Shown: piece by piece, positions 653 to 14,904 of the stretch
Position numbering within the stretch: position 1 is the stretch's first letter
How the letters are laid out: each line of letters starts with the position of its first letter
Assembly: GCA_046263035.1 (NCBI GenBank)
Contig: JBHELP010000127.1
Location: 1-33,793, forward strand
DNA from: Candidatus Dormibacteria bacterium
GTDB taxonomy: Bacteria > Chloroflexota > Dormibacteria > Aeolococcales > Aeolococcaceae
Length of the DNA: 33,793 bases
Direction: 5' to 3'
The notes under the pieces: model-generated
Database searches by the model: none
Seen by the model: only the letters and a program-made list of their open reading frames with translations
Told to the model about the DNA's origin: nothing
Translations under genes and position numbers: made by a program

Positions 653-1818
653 AGGTCTGCCTCGTCTCGCCCTACGACTTCATGCATCCCGGCGGCGTCA
701 CCGAGCACGTGCGGCACCTCGCCGCCACGCTCCGCCGCCGTGGTCACCAGGTCACCATCCTTGCTCCCTCCAGCATCGTCGGGGACGACCACGGGATCTC
801 CGGCTACATCCGTATCGGGAGAAGCGTGCCGGTCCGCAGCAACGGGTCGGTGGCCCGGATTGCGCTGTCCTTCCACCTCGTACGCCGCGTCCGCTCCCTC
901 CTCAACGAGGAGGACTTCGACATCGTCCACTACCACGAACCACTGGTCCCTGCCCTTCCCATCACGGTGCTGCGGTTCCACCGTGGAGCCAACGTGGCTA
1001 CGTTTCATGCCATGGCGCGGCGCAACCTCGGGTACTACTACGCCCGGCCCTTCCTCCGTCGCTACTTCAGGCGGCTCCACTCCTGCATCGCCGTGAGCAC
1101 TCCGGCACGCGGCTTCATCGGCCGCTACTTTCAGGGCGATTACCGCGTCATCCCAAATGGCATCGATGTCTCCCGGTTCAATCCCAGTCGCCCGCCGATG
1201 GAAGGTCTGAGGACGCCCGGGCGGCAGACCATCCTCCATGTGGGCAGGCTCGAGAAGCGCAAGGGCTTCATGGGTCTTCTCAAGGCCTACGCCGAGTTGC
1301 GGACCCGGCGGTCCGAGCCCCGCCTGGTGGTGGTCGGGGACGGCCCCATGCGTGAGGAGTATGAGGAGTACGTCCGCGATCATCAAATTCCCGACGTCCT
1401 CTTCTGCGGTCATGTCGAGGCCGACCTGCTCCCCCGCTACTACACCGCGGCGGATGTCTTTTGCGCGCCGGCCACAGGAGGCGAGAGCTTTGGCATCGTC
1501 CTGCTCGAAGCCATGGCCAGCGGCGTGCCGGTCGTCGCCTCGGCCATCGCCGGCTTTGGTGAGGTGGTGGCCGCCGGGACGGACGGACTGCTTCTTCCTC
1601 CCCGGCAGCCCCGCGCGTGGTCCGCCGAGTTGGAGAGGCTGCTCGATGACCCGGCCCGCCGTCGCTCTCTCGCAGACGCCGGCCTGCTCAAGGCGCAGGC
1701 GTTCGCATGGGAGAGAGTGGCGGACTCCATTCTCGACGTGTATCGGCAGGCGCGTTCGCGTTCGCGCGACAACCTGGTGGCAGCCGGTGTTCACCAACAA
1801 GTTCCAGGAATGGGTTAG
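649..1818 (+). CDS. Glycosyltransferase family 4, PimA-like phosphatidylinositol mannosyltransferase
   Basis: ATG 649 overlaps the upstream TGA (ATGA); MKVCLVSPYDF..PGGV, HYHEP, VATFH, GRLEKRKG, GGESFGIVLLEAMA (EX7E). Confidence 0.88.
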   Translation: MKVCLVSPYDFMHPGGVTEHVRHLAATLRRRGHQVTILAPSSIVGDDHGISGYIRIGRSVPVRSNGSVARIALSFHLVRRVRSLLNEEDFDIVHYHEPLVPALPITVLRFHRGANVATFHAMARRNLGYYYARPFLRRYFRRLHSCIAVSTPARGFIGRYFQGDYRVIPNGIDVSRFNPSRPPMEGLRTPGRQTILHVGRLEKRKGFMGLLKAYAELRTRRSEPRLVVVGDGPMREEYEEYVRDHQIPDVLFCGHVEADLLPRYYTAADVFCAPATGGESFGIVLLEAMASGVPVVASAIAGFGEVVAAGTDGLLLPPRQPRAWSAELERLLDDPARRRSLADAGLLKAQAFAWERVADSILDVYRQARSRSRDNLVAAGVHQQVPGMG

Positions 1819-2392
1819 GGCCGGGGCGCGCCGCCTCGTTCCGGGGCTGCGCCTTCTCGGCATCACACCGAATGCCCTGACGCTGGTGGGCCTTGCCGTC
1901 ACGGCCCTTTCCGCCGTGCTCATCGGTGCCGGCTTCCTCGCCGCGGGGGGTGTCGTGCTGCTCATCGCCGGGGGGTTCGACATCCTCGACGGCGCCGTCG
2001 CCCGGGTCACTGGCAAGGTGTACCGCTACGGCGCCTTCCTGGATTCGACGTCGGATCGCTACAACGAGGCCTTCACCTACGTGGCCCTCCTCTACTTCTT
2101 TCTGTTTGCCGGCGATCGCCACAATCTGGAGGCCATGCTGATCATCGCGGCCCTGACCGGATCGCTGCTGGTGTCATACGTCCGGGCTCGCGCCCAGTCC
2201 CTGGGCTTTGTCTGCGACGGCGGCATCCTGGCCCGGCCGGAGCGGGTGATCATCACCGTGCTCGGCCTTCTCGTCGCCCCGCTGCTGGTTCCCCTGCTGT
2301 GGGTCCTGGCGGTGTTGACCAATGTCACCGCTCTCCAGCGCATCTATCTGGTCTGGAGGCAGTCACGACCGGTCCCCGCGGGATCGCCATGA
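1787..2392 (+). CDS. CDP-alcohol phosphatidyltransferase (PI/PIP synthase PgsA1-like)
   Basis: GTG 1787; TPNALT and DILDGAVAR..GAFLDSTSDR signature; VSYVRARAQSLG and RPERV typical of the PIP synthase group. Confidence 0.88.
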   Translation: MFTNKFQEWVRAGARRLVPGLRLLGITPNALTLVGLAVTALSAVLIGAGFLAAGGVVLLIAGGFDILDGAVARVTGKVYRYGAFLDSTSDRYNEAFTYVALLYFFLFAGDRHNLEAMLIIAALTGSLLVSYVRARAQSLGFVCDGGILARPERVIITVLGLLVAPLLVPLLWVLAVLTNVTALQRIYLVWRQSRPVPAGSP

Positions 2393-2949
2393 ACCGGGCC
2401 ATGACCTGGGCCAGATGGGAGCTCGGCAGGCGGATCGAGGTCACTCCGGCCATCCGCCTCATAACCGTTGAGCGCTTTGTCAAGGGCGCGGTACTGCTGG
2501 TGGGCGGCCTGGCCCTGCTTGTCGTCAGCAACCACGGCGACACCGTGCCCAGGATCGCCGGAGACTTGCAGAACGAGCTCAACCTGAGCCCCGGCCGCGG
2601 GGTTCTTCGCCAGGTGTACGCGACCACGATCATCAGGTTCGGCAACTACTCACGCCTCCACGAGGACGCGGTCGCCGCCGGCGCCATGCTCTATGGTGCC
2701 CTCGAGGTCTTCGAGGGTGTCGGGCTGTTGCTGCGGCGGCGTTGGGCCGAGTACCTGGTGCTGGTCGCCACGGCCGCATTCCTCCCTCTGGAGATCGGCG
2801 AGCTCCTCCACAGCGCAACACCTCTGAAGGCGGCGGCGCTGATTCTCAACATCGTCATCATCCTCTACCTCGTCTGGCGCAAGCGGCTCTTCCTGGAGCG
2901 TCCCGGTCAGCACGTCGTGGCTGACGACACCGTCCCGGCGCCGGGCTGA
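2389..2949 (+). CDS. DUF2127-like membrane protein
   Basis: ATGA overlap with previous gene; ER.VKG, YGALEVFEGVGL..RRRWAEYL, FLPLEI.EL, NIVIILYL. Confidence 0.75.
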   Translation: MNRAMTWARWELGRRIEVTPAIRLITVERFVKGAVLLVGGLALLVVSNHGDTVPRIAGDLQNELNLSPGRGVLRQVYATTIIRFGNYSRLHEDAVAAGAMLYGALEVFEGVGLLLRRRWAEYLVLVATAAFLPLEIGELLHSATPLKAAALILNIVIILYLVWRKRLFLERPGQHVVADDTVPAPG

Positions 2950-2963
2950 CCACGAATCCACCG

Positions 2964-3716
2964 TCAGCAGGATGGCGCGTTGAGGATGGCGACGACGTTA
3001 TAGGCGTTGAACAGACTGTGCACCACGGCGCTGATCAGCAGCGATCCCGACAGCTCGTAGACGATGGCAAGGACGACGCCCACCCCGAAGAGGGGAAGAA
3101 AGAGGAGCAGATCGGCATGAGCCGCACCGAAGATCGCGGCGCTCACCGCCACTGCCGCGGCCACCGGCAGACGGTTGCGGAGCCAGCCGTAGACAAAGCC
3201 GCGAAAGATGGTCTCCTCGGCCGCAGGGTCGATGATCGACACCAGCACGATGGCGATGCCCAGGGCGTGTCCAAATTCGTGGCGAACGGCAGTGCACTGA
3301 CCGCTGCCGGCACCTGGCAGCAGCCTGGCGCTCAACTCGGCCAGCCACACAGCCGCGATGAGCGTGGCCCCCGACACCGGCAGGGCTATGGCCAGCCAGC
3401 GTCTCCTGACGCGGCGCCAACCCAGGTCTCGGACGCTCGCGTGCCGCCGGATGACGACCAGACCCAGCACCACCGCGACCCACGAGAGGTACACACCGGT
3501 GGCTCCCGCAAACGCCTGAACGGCGGTCCGGGCCTCGCCGCTGACGGCGGCGTCGCCCACATGGGCAAGGCCTCGCAGGAGCAGGGCCCCGATGGGGGCC
3601 ACCACGAAGGCGGTGGTGAGGAAGAGAAGGATGTCCGTCCAGTCCCAGGGGACGCGGCGTCGAGACCCCCGGGCGGGCAGGCCGGCGGCATGTTTCACAT
3701 TCATCGGGGGCGCCAT
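2964..3716 (-). CDS. CPBP (CAAX/Abi) intramembrane metalloprotease
   Basis: EETIFRG, FGAAH and HSLFN motifs; many TM segments; start uncertain. Confidence 0.88.
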   Translation of the reverse strand: MAPPMNVKHAAGLPARGSRRRVPWDWTDILLFLTTAFVVAPIGALLLRGLAHVGDAAVSGEARTAVQAFAGATGVYLSWVAVVLGLVVIRRHASVRDLGWRRVRRRWLAIALPVSGATLIAAVWLAELSARLLPGAGSGQCTAVRHEFGHALGIAIVLVSIIDPAAEETIFRGFVYGWLRNRLPVAAAVAVSAAIFGAAHADLLLFLPLFGVGVVLAIVYELSGSLLISAVVHSLFNAYNVVAILNAPSC

Positions 3717-3787
3717 TCTGCCGAACTACAGGGGTGCGCGCGGTCATACGGGCACATCCCGTCGCCCCCTTCCTACACTTCGTGACC

Positions 3788-7635: not shown

Positions 7636-7657
7636 ATGACTGGCGGTGGAGGATCCG

Positions 7658-9007
7658 ATGGCTGGACGGAGCAGGACAGAGGCGGTGACCCCGGATGACC
7701 TGGTGCGGCAGGCGGAGGCGGCGGGGGTCCGCTATGTGGATCTGCAGTTCACCGACGTGGTGGGATCCGTCAAGACTGTGACCATCCCGGCCGCCGAGCT
7801 CGGCGCGGCCGTCGAACACGGCACCTGGTTCGACGGCTCCTCGGTGGAATCGCTGGCACGGACGGCGGAGAGCGACATGTACCTGGTGCCGGACCCGGGG
7901 ACCTTCCAGGTGCTGCCCTGGGCGGCCCCGGCCCGCACCGCCCGACTCGTCTGCCGGGTCACCACACCCGACGGCGAGCCCTACCCCGGCGATCCCCGTG
8001 CCGCCCTCGTTCGTGCGGTGGATGGGGCGGCCAGGCTGGGATTCGACTACCGCTGCGGACCAGAGGTCGAGTTCTTTCTTCTAGAGAGGGGCGAGGGAGG
8101 CGTCGTGGCCCCCCTTCCGCACGACCACGACGGATACTTCGATTTCTCGACGGACCGTAGCGCCCGCGTGCGGCAGGCCATGGTCACCGCCCTGCAGGAT
8201 CTGGGTATCGGCGTCAACACGGTGCACCACGAGATCGCCGCCGGTCAGCATGAGATCGACTTCGCCCACGCCCCGGCGCTCAGGTCCGCCGACGATGTGA
8301 TCACCTTCCGATACACGCTGCGGGCCGTGGCGCAGCAGGCCGGCGTCATCGCCAGCTTCATGCCCAAGCCGTTTCATGGCGTGAGTGGAAGCGGGATGCA
8401 CGTGCATCAGAGCCTGGTTCATCGGGATGGAGGCAATGCCTTCCACAGCGGCGCTGACGAATATGGGCTGAGCGACCTGGCACGTCACTTCATCGCCGGC
8501 CAGCTCCATCACGCTGCGGGCATGTGCCTGGTGCTGGCACCGCTGGTCAACTCGTACAAGCGGCTGGTGCGCGGCTTCGAGGCGCCGGTGTTCGTCTCCT
8601 GGGCCCGGACCAACCGTGGTGCCCTGGTCCGTGTGCCCCATGTGGGCCGGCGCGAGGCCACCCGTGTGGAGCTGCGCAGCCCCGATCCATCATGCAATCC
8701 CTACCTGGCCTTTGCAGTGATGCTGCGCTGCGGCCTTGATGGGATCGAGCGGCGGCTACCCCTCCCCGCGGCGGTGGAGGAATCCCTCTACGGCTTCGAC
8801 GACGTGGAGCTCGAGCGGCGCAATGTTGGCGTGCTTCCCGACAATCTCAAGGACGCCATCGCCGCCTTCCGAGCCGACGAGGTCGTGCGTGACGCCCTCG
8901 GGGACCACCTGGCGGAGCGATTCCTCGAGGCCAAGCTGCTCGAGTGGCGGGATTATCGGGCCCAGGTGACGCCCTGGGAGTTGGAGCAGTATCTGGAGCG
9001 GGCGTGA
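7658..9007 (+). CDS. glnA: Glutamine synthetase family protein, GSI-alpha-like
   Basis: GGAGG 7648-7652 then ATG 7658; FDGSS..ESDM, GPEVEFF, HHEIAAGQHEIDF, FMPKP..GSGMH, NSYKRL.GFEAP, RVELRSPDP; lacks the GSI-beta insertion. Confidence 0.85.
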   Translation: MAGRSRTEAVTPDDLVRQAEAAGVRYVDLQFTDVVGSVKTVTIPAAELGAAVEHGTWFDGSSVESLARTAESDMYLVPDPGTFQVLPWAAPARTARLVCRVTTPDGEPYPGDPRAALVRAVDGAARLGFDYRCGPEVEFFLLERGEGGVVAPLPHDHDGYFDFSTDRSARVRQAMVTALQDLGIGVNTVHHEIAAGQHEIDFAHAPALRSADDVITFRYTLRAVAQQAGVIASFMPKPFHGVSGSGMHVHQSLVHRDGGNAFHSGADEYGLSDLARHFIAGQLHHAAGMCLVLAPLVNSYKRLVRGFEAPVFVSWARTNRGALVRVPHVGRREATRVELRSPDPSCNPYLAFAVMLRCGLDGIERRLPLPAAVEESLYGFDDVELERRNVGVLPDNLKDAIAAFRADEVVRDALGDHLAERFLEAKLLEWRDYRAQVTPWELEQYLERA

Positions 9008-10638
9008 GCACCTCGTTGATCACCGTCAAGGACGTGTGGAGAGGCAGCCTACCCCCGGCCACGGAGCTGCTCGGGGGCGGCGAGGGCCTCGATCGCCGGG
9101 TCGAGTGGGCGACGGCCCTGCGGACACGGCCTCCGGCCTTCGATGCCATCAAGGGCGGTGAGCTGGCCTTCGTCCCGGTCAAGAGCATCCGTCTGCTTGA
9201 TGACCGTCTCGATCTCGCTCAGGTGATGACCAGCCTGGCCGAGAAGGGCGGGGTGGCGGTGGCGGTGGTCGGAGACGTCTCGCCACAGAGCCTCGAGGTC
9301 GCCGAGCGGCTGAGCCTGCCCCTGCTCCGCCTGCCCGCCTCCGTTCACGTCGCCGACGTGCAGCAGACCACCGTCCGCTTCATCCTCGAGCAGAGGACCC
9401 TTTTGCACGAGCGCGAGCAGACCCTGCACCGGCGGCTCATGGAGCTGGCCCTGTCGGGTGCCGGACCGGCGGCCATAGTCGATGAGGTCTCGAGAGCGGT
9501 CGGCGCGGTGGCGGCCTGGCAGGATGAAGATGGCTCGCTACGTCATCTCACCGACGCCGATGAGGTGCTGGGCCGGTGCCTGGCCGCCGACATGACGGAG
9601 GTCCGCGGCTGGAGCAGCCGGGTCGCTCTGACGGCGGCAGACCCCCCGGTGCGTGAATTCTCCCTCCTCCAGCTCTCCGACCGGAAGCGACTGGTGTCGC
9701 CGATCCCGGTCCGCGACGACATCGGCGGTTACCTGAGCATCGTCGGGCCCCAGGCCCATCTCGGTCATCTCGTCCGGCTGGCATGTGCCCGAGCAGCATC
9801 CGCATGTGCCATCGAGCTCGATCGCGAGCGGGCCGTGCTCAAGGCCAGGGATGACCTCGAGGGGGAGTTTCTCGACTCCCTTTTGACCGGGACCTTCTCG
9901 TCGGAGGAGGCGGTGCAGGAACGAGGCCGCCGGCTGGGATTCGATCTCGGGGGGCACGTCACGGTGCTGGCGGCGCGGGACGACAGCGCCATCGGGCAGC
10001 CGTGGGAGGAGGCGGCCCTCCATGCCGCCCGGGGATGGGTCCGCCGCCGAGCCTCGGCGGCCCTGGTGACCCTGCATCAGGGCGCCGTCTGCGCCATCAT
10101 TCCCTCGCCTGCCGATGGTCACGGCATGGTGGGGAGGCTGGCCCACGACCTCCGGTTGGAATGCGCTCAGGCGGCCGGCCGGCCGGGCCTCTCGGTCGGC
10201 GTGGGTCGGCCCAAGCCGGGTGTCACCGGTGTGCGCGCCTCCCATCGCGAGGCTGAGCAGGCGCTGACCCTGGGTCACCGCCTCTTCGGCGGCGGCCGGG
10301 TCCTGGATTTCGCTGATCTCGGTCTGCATCGGCTGCTCTTCGCACTCACCCAGCATGCCGAGCTCCTCGAGTTCCATGGCGACAACGTGGGGGGTCTGGA
10401 GGCCTACGACGAGCGCACAGGAGGGGCGCTGATGAAGACCCTGGACGCCTACTTCGCCTGCCACGGATCGCCCACCGAGATGGCGGAGCGCCTCCATCTG
10501 CACCGCAACACGGTCCTGTACCGGCTGGGACGGATCGAGGAGATCGGCCGTCTCAGCCTCAACGACCCGGCCACCCGACTAAACCTCCACCTCTGTCTGC
10601 GTGTTGGTGAGGTGATCCAGGCCGCCGGCCGCCCCTGA
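9004..10638 (+). CDS. PucR/CdaR-family transcriptional regulator
   Basis: GTGA overlap with the GS stop; N-terminal PucR domain (LLGGGEGLDRRVEW, GGEL), central GAF-like and GGDEF-like regions, C-terminal HTH AERLHLHRNTVLYRL. Confidence 0.92.
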   Translation: MSTSLITVKDVWRGSLPPATELLGGGEGLDRRVEWATALRTRPPAFDAIKGGELAFVPVKSIRLLDDRLDLAQVMTSLAEKGGVAVAVVGDVSPQSLEVAERLSLPLLRLPASVHVADVQQTTVRFILEQRTLLHEREQTLHRRLMELALSGAGPAAIVDEVSRAVGAVAAWQDEDGSLRHLTDADEVLGRCLAADMTEVRGWSSRVALTAADPPVREFSLLQLSDRKRLVSPIPVRDDIGGYLSIVGPQAHLGHLVRLACARAASACAIELDRERAVLKARDDLEGEFLDSLLTGTFSSEEAVQERGRRLGFDLGGHVTVLAARDDSAIGQPWEEAALHAARGWVRRRASAALVTLHQGAVCAIIPSPADGHGMVGRLAHDLRLECAQAAGRPGLSVGVGRPKPGVTGVRASHREAEQALTLGHRLFGGGRVLDFADLGLHRLLFALTQHAELLEFHGDNVGGLEAYDERTGGALMKTLDAYFACHGSPTEMAERLHLHRNTVLYRLGRIEEIGRLSLNDPATRLNLHLCLRVGEVIQAAGRP

Positions 10639-10740: not shown

Positions 10741-10794
10741 TGCCGCAGCCGGTGTTCCGCCGGCATCCACGTCTCGACCTTGAGGAGGAGCTCG

Positions 10795-12264
10795 GTGCAT
10801 CGAACAACCCGAATCAGGCTGGCACTGCTGCTGCCGGCCATGGCAGCCGTCCTACCCGTGACCGCCCTGGCCGCCGACGACAAGACCGCGAGCCAGGCCG
10901 CCGGTATTGCCGCCGACACGGTGTGGGTGGTCGTCGCCGGGCTCCTGGTCCTTTTCATGCAGGCCTGATTCGCCATGCTCGAGGTGGGTTTCACCCGCAT
11001 GAAGAACGTGGGCACGGTGGTGGCCAAGATCGTGGTCAACCTGAGCGTGGCCTCGGTCGTGTACTGGGCCGTGGGCTTCGGCATAGCCTTCGGCGCCGCC
11101 GACGCCAGCCTCTTTCACTTCATCGGCTGGAGCGGCTTCGCGCCCAGCTTCAGCCCCGGCTCCGCGCTGGATCTGCCGGCGCTGTCGGCGTCCACCGTCC
11201 CCGCCGCGGCGAAGTTCTTCTTCGAGTTCGTCTTCTGCGCCGTCTCCCTGGCCATTGTCTGGGGAACGATGCTGGAGCGCACCAAGTTCAGCGTCTACAT
11301 CCTCTTCGCGATTCCCTTCTGCGCCTTCATCTACCCGCTGATCAGCCATCAGCTCTTCGGCGGTGGCTGGCTGACATCGGCGGTGCACGCTCAGGACTTC
11401 GCGGGCTCAACGGTCGTCCACCTGACCGGTGCGACGGCCGGATTCGCAGGATTGCTTCTGCTCGGTCCCCGCATCGGCAAGTACGGCGCCGACAAGCGGC
11501 CCAACGCCATTCCAGGGCACAGCATGCCGCTGGCCCAGCTCGGTGTGATCATCCTCTGGTTCGGCTGGTTCGGCTTCAATCCCGGGTCGACCCTCAATGC
11601 CACCAACCTGCACTTCGCCGACGTGGTCGTCACCACCAACCTCGCCGCGGCCGCCGGCGCTCTTGCTGCTATGGGCGCCATCTACATGATGCAGCGCACC
11701 CTGGATGTCGGCATGATCGGCAACGGGGCCATCGCCGCGCTGGTGGCCATAACCGCCCCCTCCGGCTATGTGCAGCCGTGGGCCGCTCTGATAATCGGCG
11801 CGGTCGCCGGGATCATCGTGGTCTTTGGGGTGCTCGCCATCGACAAGTTGATAGACGATCCCATCGGCGCGCTCAGCGCTCACGGCCTGGCGGGGATCTG
11901 GGGCACGCTCTCCTGCGGGCTGTTCACCGACCCCCAATTCGCCACCCTCAACGGCATCGGCGACGGCGGGCTCTTCTACACGGGAAACCTCACCCAGCTC
12001 GGTCGTCAGGCGGTCGCGGTTGGGGCCAGCTTCGTCACCGTCTTCGTGCTCTCATTCCTGCTCTTCTGGGTGATCAAGCGGGTTGTCGGGCTTCGCGTCA
12101 GCCAGCGCGATGAGCTCGAGGGCCTGGACATCAGCGAGCACGGCATGTGGGGCTACCCCGAGCAGTTCATGCCCGTTCCCGGCGGGGCCTACATCCATCC
12201 CGACGCCATTGCCGAACCAGCACGCCGAACGGCCACCGCCGTCACCCCGGAGTACCGGGCATGA
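10795..12264 (+). pseudogene. amtB: Ammonium transporter Amt interrupted by one in-frame TGA at 10966-10968
   Basis: GAGGAGGAG RBS then GTG 10795; reads LVLFMQA*FAMLEVGFTR where the family has FMQAGFAMLE; DFAGSTVVH, WFGWFGFNPGS, DDP..SAHG and GLDISEHG intact. Confidence 0.85.
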
Positions 12265-12629
12265 AGAAGGTGGAGGCGATCATCCGGCCGGAGAGCCTGC
12301 AGGCTGTGCAGGACGCGCTCGACGTCCTCGGAGCTTCGGGGCTGACGGTCACCGAGGTTCACGGTTGCGGCACTCAGCGTGGCTACACCGAGACCTACAG
12401 GGGCGCCCGCGCCAACATCTCGCTCAAGCGCAAGGTCAAGATCGAGGCCGTGGTCGCCGACCCCGCCGTGGAGGGTGTTGTCGAGGCAATCTCCCGGGCG
12501 GCCAAGACGGGTGAGGTGGGCGACGGCAAGATCTTCGTCCTTCCCGTCGACGACGCGGTCCGCATCCGCACTGGGGAGCATGGCGAGGAGGTCGTCCGGC
12601 ACGTCGCCCCGGAGCATTGGGGGCATTAG
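12261..12629 (+). CDS. glnK: P-II family nitrogen regulator (GlnK/GlnB)
   Basis: MKKVEAIIRP, GCGTQRG..YRG, TGEVGDGKIFV, RIRTGE; ATGA overlap with amt. Confidence 0.93.
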   Translation: MKKVEAIIRPESLQAVQDALDVLGASGLTVTEVHGCGTQRGYTETYRGARANISLKRKVKIEAVVADPAVEGVVEAISRAAKTGEVGDGKIFVLPVDDAVRIRTGEHGEEVVRHVAPEHWGH

Positions 12630-12639
12630 CAGGCGGCTC

Positions 12640-12820
12640 ATCCCAGCACCGGCATCCTCCTCTTGGCAGGGGCGGGTCCCAGCGTGGGCCCGCCCCTGGA
12701 CCGGCACCCTCCTCCTGGCAACGGGTAGGGGCGGCCCCATGCGGGGACCGCCCCTGGACCGGCATCCTCCTCCTGGCACGGGCCCCCCGTCCCTGGACCC
12801 GCCCCTACCCGTGCCCTGGC
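12640..12820 (+). ncRNA. Candidate structured sRNA / 3'UTR element with three anti-SD (CCUCCUC) loops
   Basis: CCGG/YTGG stems close CAYCCTCCTC loops using G-U pairs possible only on the + strand; ends are approximate. Confidence 0.5.
12648..12778 (+). repeat. Three 21-nt direct repeats ACCGGCAYCCTCCTCYTGGCA separated by GC-rich hairpins
   Basis: Copies at 12648-12668, 12700-12720, 12758-12778; spacers of 31 and 37 nt both contain GGGGCGG...CCGCCCC stems. Confidence 0.9.
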
Positions 12821-12904
12821 CGGTTGTCCCCCGGCGGATAGATGGCTGCGCCCTGGCATGTGTCGCTCTCTGGTTTCCACGAGCGTTGGTAGACTCGGTG
12901 TGCG

Positions 12905-13207
12905 ATGACCTACACCGTCACCGAACCCTGCATCGACCTCAAGGACAAGTCATGCATCGACGTGTGTCCGGTCGACTGCATTCATGAGGCTGAGGAGGAC
13001 CGTATGGTCTTCATCGATCCAGAGGAGTGCATCGACTGCGGGGCATGTGTCGACCCCTGTCCGGTCGACGCCATCTTCGCCGAGGAGGACGTGCCGGCGG
13101 AGCAGGCACCGTTCGTCGAGATCAACAAGCAGTATTTCACCGACCGTGAGACAGCTCGGGAGAAGGTCATGAGCCTCAAGCCACCACCCGAGGTGCCGGT
13201 CGCCTGA
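12905..13207 (+). CDS. Ferredoxin, 7Fe ([3Fe-4S]+[4Fe-4S]) type
   Basis: [26 protein letters not shown] and [17 protein letters not shown]; extended -10-like TGGTAGACT at 12887-12895. Confidence 0.93.
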
Positions 13208-13217
13208 GCCGTCGCGT

Positions 13218-13297
13218 TTGTGCACCGGGTACAGGACGGCCGGGCGCGCTGTCGTCTCCCGGGCCCATGGAGGGCCGACCGCCGTACGCGCTAACCT
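13218..13297 (+). promoter_or_regulatory. Putative glnA promoter: box TTGTG-N7-TACAG (13218-13234), second box TCGTC-N7-CCCAT (13252-13268), -10 TAACCT (13292-13297)
   Basis: Box1-box2 offset 34 nt and box1 to -10 offset 74 nt, versus 34 and 73 nt upstream of amtB. Confidence 0.5.
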
Positions 13298-13410
13298 ATG
13301 CTGCCTCGGCCTGCTTCCGCAGTGGGCGTCACGTCATCAGCGTGAGCCCACTGTGGTCGAGCCACCCATCCCCCAGTCAGAGGCCGGAACGGCGTCGGTG
13401 AGGAGTACCA

Positions 13411-14904
13411 ATGGCAATCGATGAATCCGTAGCTGCCAAAGGGTCAATCGAGGTATCGACCATGTCACAGTCGACCAGCAAGGCTGCGCCGTCCCCGCGG
13501 GATGTCATCTCCCGGGCGGAGAACCACGGGGTCAAGATGGTCGACTTCCGCTTCACGGACCTGCCCGGCTCGTGGCAGCACTTCAGCATCCCCATAGAGG
13601 AGCTCAAGGAGTCGGTGTTCTCGGAGGGTATCGGTTTCGACGGCTCGAGCATCCGCGGCTTTCAGAAGATCCACGAGAGCGACATGCTTCTCTTCCCCGA
13701 CGCGGCGCGGGCCTTCCTGGATCCCTGCCTGGAGGTGCCCACGCTCGCCATCGTCTGTGACATCAGGGACCCGCTCACCCTCAAGCCCTACAGCCGGGAT
13801 CCCCGCTTCGTGGCCCGCAAGGCGGAGGAGTACCTCCGGTCCACCGGCGTGGCCGACACCTCCTACTGGGGTCCGGAGGTTGAGTTCTACATCTTCAACT
13901 CGATCCGGTTCGACCAGAACAGCCACGAGGGCTACTACTTCATCGACTCCGAGGAGGGCGTCTGGAACAGCGGCCAGAACACCGGTCCCAACCTGGGATT
14001 CCGCCCCCGGCACAAGGAGGGCTACTTTCCCGTCCCCCCCGTCGACAAGCAGCAGGACCTTCGCAGCCGCATCGTCCTCGACCTCATCGCGGCGGGGATC
14101 GACATCGAGGTCCACCACCACGAGGTGGGCACTGCCGGTCAGGCGGAGATCGACATGCGCTTCGACACCATGGTCACCATGGCGGACAAGGTGCTCATGT
14201 ACAAGTACATAGTCCGCAACGTCTGCTATCGCCATGGCTACACGGCGACCTTCATGCCCAAGCCACTCTTCGGTGACAACGGCAGCGGCATGCACACCCA
14301 CCAGTCGCTCTGGAAGGACGGCACCCCCCTCTTCTATGACAAGGAGGGATACGCGCTGCTCAGCGACACGGCTCGCTGGTACATCGGTGGACTCCTCGCC
14401 CATGCCCCGGCGGTGCTGGCCTTCGCTGCGCCCACCACCAACAGCTACCGTCGCCTCGTCCCCGGCTATGAGGCGCCCATAAAGCTTGCCTACAGCGCCC
14501 GGAACCGGAGCGCCTGCGTCCGGATCCCGACCTACAGTAACTCGCCGGCCGCCCGCCGGCTCGAGTTCCGCTCACCGGATCCCATGTGCAACCCCTATTA
14601 CGCCTTCTCGGCCATGTTGATGGCGGGCCTCGATGGTATCGCCAACAAGATCGAGCCGCAGAAGCCCATCGAGGCCGACCTCTACGAGCTTGAGGGCGAC
14701 GAGGCGACCGCCGTGAGGGATCTTCCGGGTTCGCTGCCGGAGGTGCTTGACGCGCTGGAGCGCGATCACGCCTTCCTCCTCCAGGGCGGTGTGTTCACCG
14801 AGGACGTCATCGAGACCTGGATTCAGTACAAGCGCGAGCGAGAGGTCGATCCCATAGCCCTGAGGCCCCACCCTCACGAGTTCCACCTCTACTACGATGC
14901 CTAG
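13411..14904 (+). CDS. glnA: Glutamine synthetase type I (GSI-beta)
   Basis: [17 protein letters not shown], beta insertion ([11 protein letters not shown]), [36 protein letters not shown], adenylylation-type DLYEL; alternative ATG at 13462. Confidence 0.96.

Follow-up and report, generated by a model that had tools for sequence, protein, structure and literature searches.

What might a cluster of near-identical, CU-rich repeats be doing directly behind glnK, the P-II protein gene of a nitrogen gene cluster in an uncultured bacterium? The element that raises this question occupies the start of the glnK-fdxA spacer in a 33,793-nucleotide stretch of DNA (hereafter the window; contig JBHELP010000127.1 of Candidatus Dormibacteria bacterium), which belongs to a 1.9-Mb genome assembly of 255 contigs that is 83% complete. 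A preliminary description had placed here, at the 3′ end of amtB-glnK and beginning 19 nt after the glnK stop codon, three copies of a repeat unit alternating with strong GC hairpins, and had interpreted them as a candidate small RNA (sRNA) with three anti-Shine-Dalgarno (anti-SD) loops. Its observations on placement and alternation are borne out: the element lies directly behind glnK, its first unit starts at that distance from the stop, and the array is real and far beyond chance. We tentatively favour the view that the element is a lineage-specific RNA module of the amtB-glnK 3′ untranslated region (3′UTR) acting through anti-SD pairing, a reading we would call possible rather than probable.

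The pattern ACCGGCAYCCTCCTCYTGGCA has three matches in the window (units 1 to 3; coordinates are collected in Table 1), all on the + strand, and a search that tolerated up to three mismatches gave only these. Its chance expectation in the window is 0.01, and three or more copies arose in none of 100 shuffles. The unit (the CU box) is invariant at 19 of its 21 positions, the other two both being C/T, and its CU-rich core reads CCUCCUC in unit 1 and CCUCCUCC in units 2 and 3. The units are spaced by 52 and 58 bp, and Tandem Repeats Finder reports an array with a period of 58 nt and 2.0-2.5 copies. Immediately downstream, positions 12779-12815 resemble a degenerate fourth repeat, the 3′ arm of which is complementary to the 5′ arm of the second spacer hairpin (hairpin B). 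The 9-mer CCGGCATCC, which units 1 and 3 share in their 5′ part, also occurs at 10760-10770, 12 nt 5′ of the amtB SD sequence, where its presence is probably due to chance.

Differences between the copies are concentrated outside the boxes. When repeat copy 2 (12670-12720) is compared with copy 3 (12728-12778), the 27 nt of the hairpin part hold eight of the nine mismatches and the 24 nt of linker and unit hold one (Fisher p = 0.026), the ungapped register used for this comparison somewhat inflating the count of loop mismatches. Reading of the sequence and the folds indicates that pairing in hairpins A and B survives one exchange of G-C for C-G and two further changes in which a G-U pair arises or is lost. 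Moreover, unit 1 follows a 5′ flank unrelated to that of the other copies yet presents the same sharp 21-nt block, and the box edges are sharp in all three. This pattern of divergence suggests selection on the box sequence and on stem pairing after duplication, and simple decay of a recent duplication fits it less well, although it does not discriminate between an RNA seed and a DNA binding site.

Both spacer hairpins are more stable than shuffled sequence (z -4.0 for hairpin A and -3.0 for hairpin B). In the minimum free energy (MFE) structure of 12630-12850, hairpin A forms separately, a 36-bp hairpin displaces hairpin B, and units 1 and 2 are single-stranded linkers. For the isolated element, the predicted mean probability of being unpaired is 0.80 for the CAUCCUCCUC core in unit 1, and 0.86 for the cores of both unit 2 and unit 3. 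Regions of 33 nt around the units fold less well than shuffled sequences (z +0.5 to +1.4), which argues that the boxes are intrinsically open. Judged by these predictions, "three accessible CU boxes between hairpins" is an accurate description of the element and "three loops" is not. Intrinsic terminators were considered and rejected: hairpins A and B both continue into UGGACCGG, with no T-run, and no terminator-like site was found in 12200-13500.

The assignment of the element to the 3′UTR of glnK depends on the promoter of the next gene. Among the 116 other genomes of the family, 53 carry glnK, and all 53 loci were examined; the relatives compared belong to other genera, the window genome being the sole member of its genus (g1) in the set. 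The fdxA gene follows glnK on the same strand in 38 of the 53, with spacers of 38-932 nt. In 32 of 39 loci (the window plus these 38), a TA(G/A/C)ACT box lies 8-10 nt 5′ of the fdxA ATG, and we infer that it may represent a nearly leaderless promoter of fdxA itself. A -10-like box at this position places the element in the glnK 3′UTR rather than in an fdxA leader, and sets the 3′ limit of that UTR. A scan of 12200-13500 for sigma-70 consensus promoters reported no site, the TAGACT box of the window included. At the other seven loci, most of them from genus g17, the box is 43-87 nt upstream of the fdxA ATG, and the CU-rich leader behind it looks structured and conserved within that genus.

A box embedded in a 3′UTR could act on any exposed SD sequence, and the preliminary description had named those of amtB, of the upstream glutamine synthetase (GS) gene and of glnA as complementary. 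All of the quoted sites exist, and amtB stands out among them. RNAduplex pairs unit 1 with the amtB start region through 16 bp with two small bulges (-28.0 kcal/mol), and the duplex extends from the SD sequence through the first two start-codon bases; the unit matches the reverse complement of this region at 14 of 21 positions. Against a background of 2962 crude SD-bearing candidate start sites, 4% have a duplex at least as low in energy. We regard the amtB pairing as suggestive; as the first gene of the same operon, amtB is the natural candidate and would be the most likely partner of the boxes.

The preliminary description had asked whether the unit might be scattered through the genome like repetitive extragenic palindromic (REP) sequences or bacterial interspersed mosaic elements (BIMEs), and it is not. 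A search of the genome with the 18-nt core and up to two mismatches finds the three exact copies here and three unrelated two-mismatch places elsewhere. Three CCTCCTC motifs within 160 nt form three clusters in the genome, the two others of which look coding, and there are seven occurrences of the hairpin type GGGGCGG..CCGCCCC. Of the 374 genomes of the class, this one alone has the two-unit pattern (GCAYCCTCCTC, 30-70 nt, GCAYCCTCCTC). A unit so confined is not a dispersed repeat, and REP, BIME and miniature inverted-repeat transposable element explanations are excluded. Nor is the locus an array of clustered regularly interspaced short palindromic repeats (CRISPR): both spacers are palindromic and mutually similar, and the repeats number only three, at 21 nt each; no search was made for cas genes.

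Wider searches likewise returned no second instance. Plasmid and phage sequences gave no match to the element. Rfam 15 has no match in the whole window at the gathering score, and the 18 weak matches at E <=10 in 12560-12960 are microRNA-type noise, the best reaching 22.9 bits against a cut-off of 72 for its microRNA model. Class-wide, the 21-mer with up to three mismatches has scattered one- to three-mismatch matches in 202 of 374 genomes, with 228 further matches beyond those listed. The 42 near-matches in one genome (G079) were rejected as part of an unrelated 2-kb tandem array within an open reading frame (ORF) of 757 aa; that array (L324, G079:C5, ~1650-3760) has nested periods of 14, 56, 70 and 126 nt, its ORF is on the minus strand, and it lies at a contig end. 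Exact scans with the 18-mer hit at least 120 stretches of public genome contigs and at least 119 of metagenome contigs, with one match each; among the matches listed, BLAST of the element against the fetched loci aligned pieces of at most 48 nt around the seed with no second unit, and contexts with a further CCTCCTC were coding-like. A looser order-wide pattern of three CCTCCTC motifs spaced 30-60 nt apart was discarded, as it matched 46 of 161 genomes and a reversed control pattern matched too; the six such loci inspected were coding or unrelated repeats, none next to glnK. A coding mask based on G+C at third codon positions, intended for non-coding CCTCCTC sites, was crude and uninformative, flagging 57% of the genome as coding.

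The proteins encoded by this genome and its relatives bear on how such an element could work. The RNA-binding domain of Rho (PF07497) was found in none of 41 genomes of the order, 24 of them at least 90% complete, whereas the same search found it in the nine reference genomes used as a control. Hfq was not found in the 83%-complete genome, RNase III is encoded, and a 16S rRNA was not assembled. The lack of a detected Hfq together with the presence of RNase III fits chaperone-independent G-C-rich pairing of the kind described for 6C RNA and RNase III-aided control of the kind described for the icaR 3′UTR (see below). Having RNase III with no Rho domain, Hfq or RNase E/G found is an unusual set for a high-GC lineage with actinobacterial-looking GS and FdxA.

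According to the reading that we favour, the module would have been built through local tandem amplification of a ~55-nt unit. Three near-identical, mostly unpaired CU-rich boxes (core CAYCCUCCUC) would be displayed between strong GC hairpins, which may shield the RNA and set its 3′ ends, while the boxes would serve as redundant anti-SD seeds. If the + strand is transcribed as part of the operon, the 3′UTR could exert negative feedback on amtB translation whenever the operon is transcribed, acting either in cis or, once processed into a fragment, in trans; RNase III is a possible nuclease for the duplex, and further SD-bearing mRNAs are possible targets. Such a function is plausible in kind and draws on one locus. 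The fullest version of this proposal, which we consider unlikely, is that a three-seed anti-SD 3′UTR evolved by tandem amplification, folds back on or is released to the amtB start as an autoregulatory brake on ammonium uptake, is convergent with NfeR1 and the icaR 3′UTR, and has been caught at birth in a single genus with no apparent Rho (in the lineage), Hfq or RNase E/G.

Several observations weigh against an anti-SD module. The predicted accessibility of unit 1 falls to 0.27-0.42 when flanking mRNA is included, making it largely paired. Of the three anti-SD loops in the preliminary description, the accessibility stands but the loops do not: unit 3 alone forms a hairpin loop in the MFE structure, and the 4-bp unit stems (CCGG/YUGG, always with one G-U) are weak and no better than shuffles. 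The fold of the whole element on the + strand is not significant (z -1.6; 13 of 200 shuffles as good), and the - strand folds slightly better (z -2.5; 3 of 200 as good). With neither a sigma-70-type promoter nor a U-tract terminator found in 12200-13500, no discrete sRNA gene is evident, and RNase E/G did not turn up in the 83%-complete genome, leaving release of the GlnZ type unsupported. Complementarity to SD sequences is also cheap. Upstream of candidate starts (ORFs of at least 80 aa), GGAGG occurs 1096 times, GAGGAG 386, GGAGGAT 47 and GAGGAGGA 28, and the pairings claimed for GS (-22.3 kcal/mol; 30% of the background at least as low) and glnA (-19.6 kcal/mol; 53%) are generic. Duplexes with glnK, fdxA and the PucR-type regulator gene are weaker still (82-96%), and the 4% rank of amtB is that of one among six sites tested against a noisy background. 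Finally, amtB itself carries an in-frame TGA at codon 58 (10966-10968), a codon that in 29 of 29 relatives encodes the Gly of FMQAGFAMLE. A nonsense mutation, a strain variant and an assembly error are possible causes, and the TGA adds doubt about the integrity of the operon, which may be undergoing decay in this population; alternatively, the fault may lie in the assembly. The next in-frame ATG after the TGA is at 10975.

Conservation behind glnK, the lack of which the preliminary description had named among the findings that would refute it, is lacking at every distance that could be tested (other genera). The element is present in none of the 38 glnK-fdxA spacers of relatives, BLAST of the 201-nt element against 40 relatives gave as its best match a 30-nt GC-rich fragment away from glnK, and the element is thus a single instance. 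According to one source, however, orthologous genes commonly have 3′UTRs that are species-specific (PMC7049690), so that absence from other genera is not fatal. These negatives, those of the class-wide and order-wide pattern searches, the count of glnK loci in the family, the spacer statistics, the amtB comparison and the genus g10 hairpin count given below rest partly on genomes flagged as unpublished (G002, G027, G032, G036, G043, G044, G053, G151, G152, G197, G306, G307, G308, G337). CCTCCTC does occur on the sense strand in 5 of 35 relatives' spacers of up to 400 nt, against 1.75 expected from dinucleotide shuffles (P = 0.02), but GAGGAGG is in none of these spacers, CCTCC is not enriched (15 vs 15.1), and among the five the motif lies within a hairpin arm in at least two and in the fdxA leader in one. 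This excess is too weak and heterogeneous to count as conservation. Genus g10 (for example loci L017, L018, L020, L028 and L041) has a conserved hairpin of its own right behind the glnK stop, with arms GAGGGGGGAA and TTCCCCCCTC, a variable loop and then a C-rich run. With one or two occurrences per genome in four of five genomes searched, it is a glnK-specific 3′ structure unlike that of the window.

Such hairpins lend weight to the main rival, which we judge somewhat unlikely: that the array consists of structural 3′-end hairpins and has no sequence-specific role. A duplicated glnK-distal module would then pause or terminate transcription or block 3′ exonucleases, its CU boxes being inert linkers kept by young duplication or homogenisation. 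GC hairpins occur just past the glnK stop in relatives too, that of g10 differing in sequence; the length and content of the glnK-fdxA spacer are highly variable, as for weakly constrained DNA; Tandem Repeats Finder reads a simple 58-nt tandem array; and the hairpins alone are thermodynamically significant. That the Rho domain was found in none of 41 genomes of the order makes hairpin-based formation of 3′ ends plausible, but no hairpin here has a U tract after it. Homogenisation, moreover, should affect the whole unit rather than leave eight mismatches in the hairpin tops and one in the boxes, the pair-preserving stem changes imply some age, and the box ends are sharp in three copies despite the different 5′ flank of unit 1. 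A protein-binding site, too, would leave a sharply bounded 21-bp block amid diverged flanks. On this account, decidedly unlikely in our view, the direct repeats would be DNA sites for a regulator, such as the product of the PucR-type gene (8944-10638) or a nitrogen regulator, and would govern fdxA-glnA or glnK read-through. The neighbourhood does include a regulator gene and two GS genes, and the repeats are ~115-245 bp 5′ of the fdxA -10-like box, yet that is far upstream of the promoter, and spacings of 52 and 58 bp put the repeats on different helical faces. The unit lacks dyad symmetry, and the regions upstream of amtB, GS and glnA hold no additional copy, not even a degenerate one; outside the array, the window's best match reaches 16 of 21, and none of the top matches falls in a promoter region. 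To our knowledge, the 21-bp repeat matches no known operator consensus.

Two further possibilities have less to commend them. The - strand reads UGCCARGAGGAGGRUGCCGGU, which gives three strong SD-like motifs with an AUG or GUG after each, and could specify an antisense RNA, a small ORF or a ribosome decoy. The slightly better fold of that strand and the ORFs of 80-196 aa that begin in or near the units speak for this, but we hold it to be very improbable: neither repeat period (52 or 58 nt) is divisible by 3, making a repeated peptide impossible; neither the - strand ORF 12638-12880, the one scanned, nor the overlapping + strand ORF 12617-12841 has a Pfam match; the SD-to-start spacing is only ~3 nt; the neighbouring genes are all on the + strand; and no promoter was found on the - strand in 12200-13500. 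The unit stems pair on the + strand only, as the preliminary description had noted from G-U pairing; that point applies to the 4-bp stems and to a single wobble of hairpin A, although it is thin evidence. The C-rich, G-poor single-stranded tracts could instead be a Rho utilization (rut) region that loads Rho to end amtB-glnK transcription. C exceeds G on the + strand in 12740-12840 (GC skew -0.23 to -0.36) and no intrinsic terminator was found, but the same skew is seen in 11 of 20 relatives' spacers with no trend, and with PF07497 found in none of 41 genomes of the order this rival is nearly refuted and scarcely credible.

If the boxes of the favoured RNA module are functional, the locus would offer an example of the birth of a riboregulator, a 3′UTR hairpin module amplified in place with its seed kept and its stems drifting, linked with the uptake of nitrogen and arising in an uncultured high-GC lineage in which no Hfq, Rho or RNase E/G was found. 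If they are non-functional, the element would be a commonplace tandem repeat, specific to its lineage, within a spacer that varies greatly, and would mainly warn that in a genome most of whose genes carry GGAGG, complementarity to ribosome-binding sites comes cheap.

Table 1. Positions of the element, its predicted structures and the surrounding genes in the window
Feature	Coordinates	Strand	Details
CU box, unit 1	12648-12668	+	ACCGGCATCCTCCTCTTGGCA, exact pattern match
CU box, unit 2	12700-12720	+	ACCGGCACCCTCCTCCTGGCA, exact pattern match
CU box, unit 3	12758-12778	+	ACCGGCATCCTCCTCCTGGCA, exact pattern match; apical 10-nt loop 12763-12772 closed by CCGG/CUGG
Spacer hairpin A	12667-12698	+	13-bp stem, one U-G wobble, 6-nt loop; -30.6 kcal/mol
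Spacer hairpin B	12726-12756	+	13 bp, one bulged A, 4-nt loop; -27.8 kcal/mol; alternative to long hairpin
Long imperfect hairpin	12717-12815	+	36 bp; -63.2 kcal/mol; unit 3 at tip; inverted and direct repeat
Small terminal hairpin	12819-12835	+	GCCGG-N7-CCGGC, without U tract; 5′ arm pairs with 12699-12705 in full-length MFE structure
amtB start region	10782-10797	+	SD GAGGAGGA (10782-10789), GAGGAGG 10782-10788, GTG 10795-10797; best predicted partner of boxes
GS SD	7648-7654	+	GGAGGAT, before ATG 7658
glnA SD	13400-13405	+	GAGGAG, before ATG 13411
-10-like box	12890-12895	+	TAGACT, 9 nt 5′ of fdxA ATG
GS, type I glutamine synthetase	7658-9007	+	ATG start; profile matches
PucR-type regulator	8944-10638	+	profile matches
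amtB, ammonium transporter	10795-12264	+	GTG start 10795-10797; TIGR00836, 361.5 bits over 10975-12264
glnK, P-II protein	12261-12629	+	122 aa; stop TAG 12627-12629; Pfam P-II, NCBIfam P-II
glnK-fdxA spacer			275 nt; element occupies its start
fdxA, 7Fe-type ferredoxin	12905-13207	+	Pfam Fer4; NCBIfam FdxA_Actino, 110 bits, under cut-off of 125
glnA	13411-14904	+	ATG 13411; type I glutamine synthetase

The cluster reads, on the + strand, GS, PucR-type regulator, amtB, glnK, element, fdxA and glnA, and all genes flanking the element from 10795 to 14904 share this orientation. Two type I GS genes thus bracket amtB-glnK-fdxA, with the PucR-family gene between the first GS gene and amtB. GlnK is 70-81% identical to its counterparts in the 53 family relatives. 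The first GS also scores with models for type III GS and gamma-glutamylputrescine synthetase, under their cut-offs, and the best score of FdxA is with an actinobacterial model, below that model's cut-off. For the glnA product, the nearest glutamine synthetase entries in PDB are, we presume, mycobacterial.

Several published RNAs resemble the element in design. The preliminary description had proposed an analogy to alpha-r14/NfeR1 of Sinorhizobium meliloti, an RNA whose three hairpins, their stems unlike in sequence, carry one and the same CCUCCUCCC motif in unpaired regions, and which is induced by nitrogen stress, acts independently of Hfq and blocks ribosome-binding sites (PMC10746234). The analogy holds for the design: three identical CCUCCUC-type anti-SD motifs that are unpaired, divergent stems and a link to nitrogen. 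It does not extend to kinship. The core of the element is CAYCCUCCUCY and never CCUCCUCCC, and one box only is a hairpin loop; the element lies in an mRNA 3′UTR, with no terminator of its own and, by the sigma-70 consensus scan, no promoter of its own found in 12200-13500; it is a single instance in another lineage; and it shows no similarity in sequence or to a covariance model. Membership in the alpha-r14/cuckoo group was accordingly rejected, as no such model matched even among the Rfam matches at E <=10, and the Rfam and covariance search suggested in the preliminary description produced no family match.

NrsZ of Pseudomonas consists of conserved modules with stem-loop spacers, present in one to six copies depending on the species and processed into modules, and it adjoins nitrogen regulatory genes (PMC4253122). 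The tandem arrangement of conserved modules and stem-loop spacers is shared by the element, with its three 21-nt boxes and two differing hairpins. However, NrsZ has an RpoN promoter and a conserved stem-loop with a ACAGGCAG loop that activates rhlA, whereas here the CU-rich linker is conserved and the strong hairpins are the variable spacers, with no homology. Reading of the sequence at the element revealed no RpoN (sigma-54) site TGGCAC-N5-TTGCW with correct spacing, the NrsZ loop motif differs, and there is no Rfam match.

In the icaR 3′UTR of Staphylococcus aureus, a UCCCCUG anti-SD motif pairs with the SD sequence of its own mRNA, which blocks initiation and creates an RNase III substrate (PMC3868564). 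The element likewise offers a C-rich anti-SD motif in a long 3′UTR complementary to an SD sequence of the same transcript, in a genome that encodes RNase III. The likeness here is that of the computed 16-bp duplex with amtB and assumes that amtB-glnK is one transcript. Whereas icaR is monocistronic and has one motif, there are three boxes here, and their partner lies ~1.85 kb upstream in the first cistron of an operon.

GlnZ is an enterobacterial sRNA derived from the glnA 3′UTR of a nitrogen-induced mRNA (PMC9731577; 10.1101/2022.04.01.486790). The element would similarly be an sRNA candidate from the 3′UTR of a nitrogen-induced mRNA, and its position, starting just past the glnK stop and upstream of the fdxA -10-like box, is that of a 3′UTR-derived sRNA, with the transcript itself putative. 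GlnZ depends on Hfq and RNase E, whereas the 83%-complete genome yielded neither Hfq nor RNase E/G; no U-tract terminator was seen in 12200-13500, the host gene is another one, and there is no homology.

The 6C RNA of high-GC Gram-positives pairs through C-rich loops with G-rich ribosome-binding sites and does so without a chaperone (PMC6486639). C-rich single-stranded regions complementary to G-rich ribosome-binding sites are a feature of the element as well, but 6C is a conserved stand-alone gene with C-rich loops, and no 6C family was among the Rfam matches at E <=10. By this comparison the element shares design features with alpha-r14/NfeR1, NrsZ, the icaR 3′UTR and 6C, yet is a member of none of these groups. 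Should its boxes act as proposed, the design of three redundant anti-SD seeds would extend beyond the alpha-proteobacteria.

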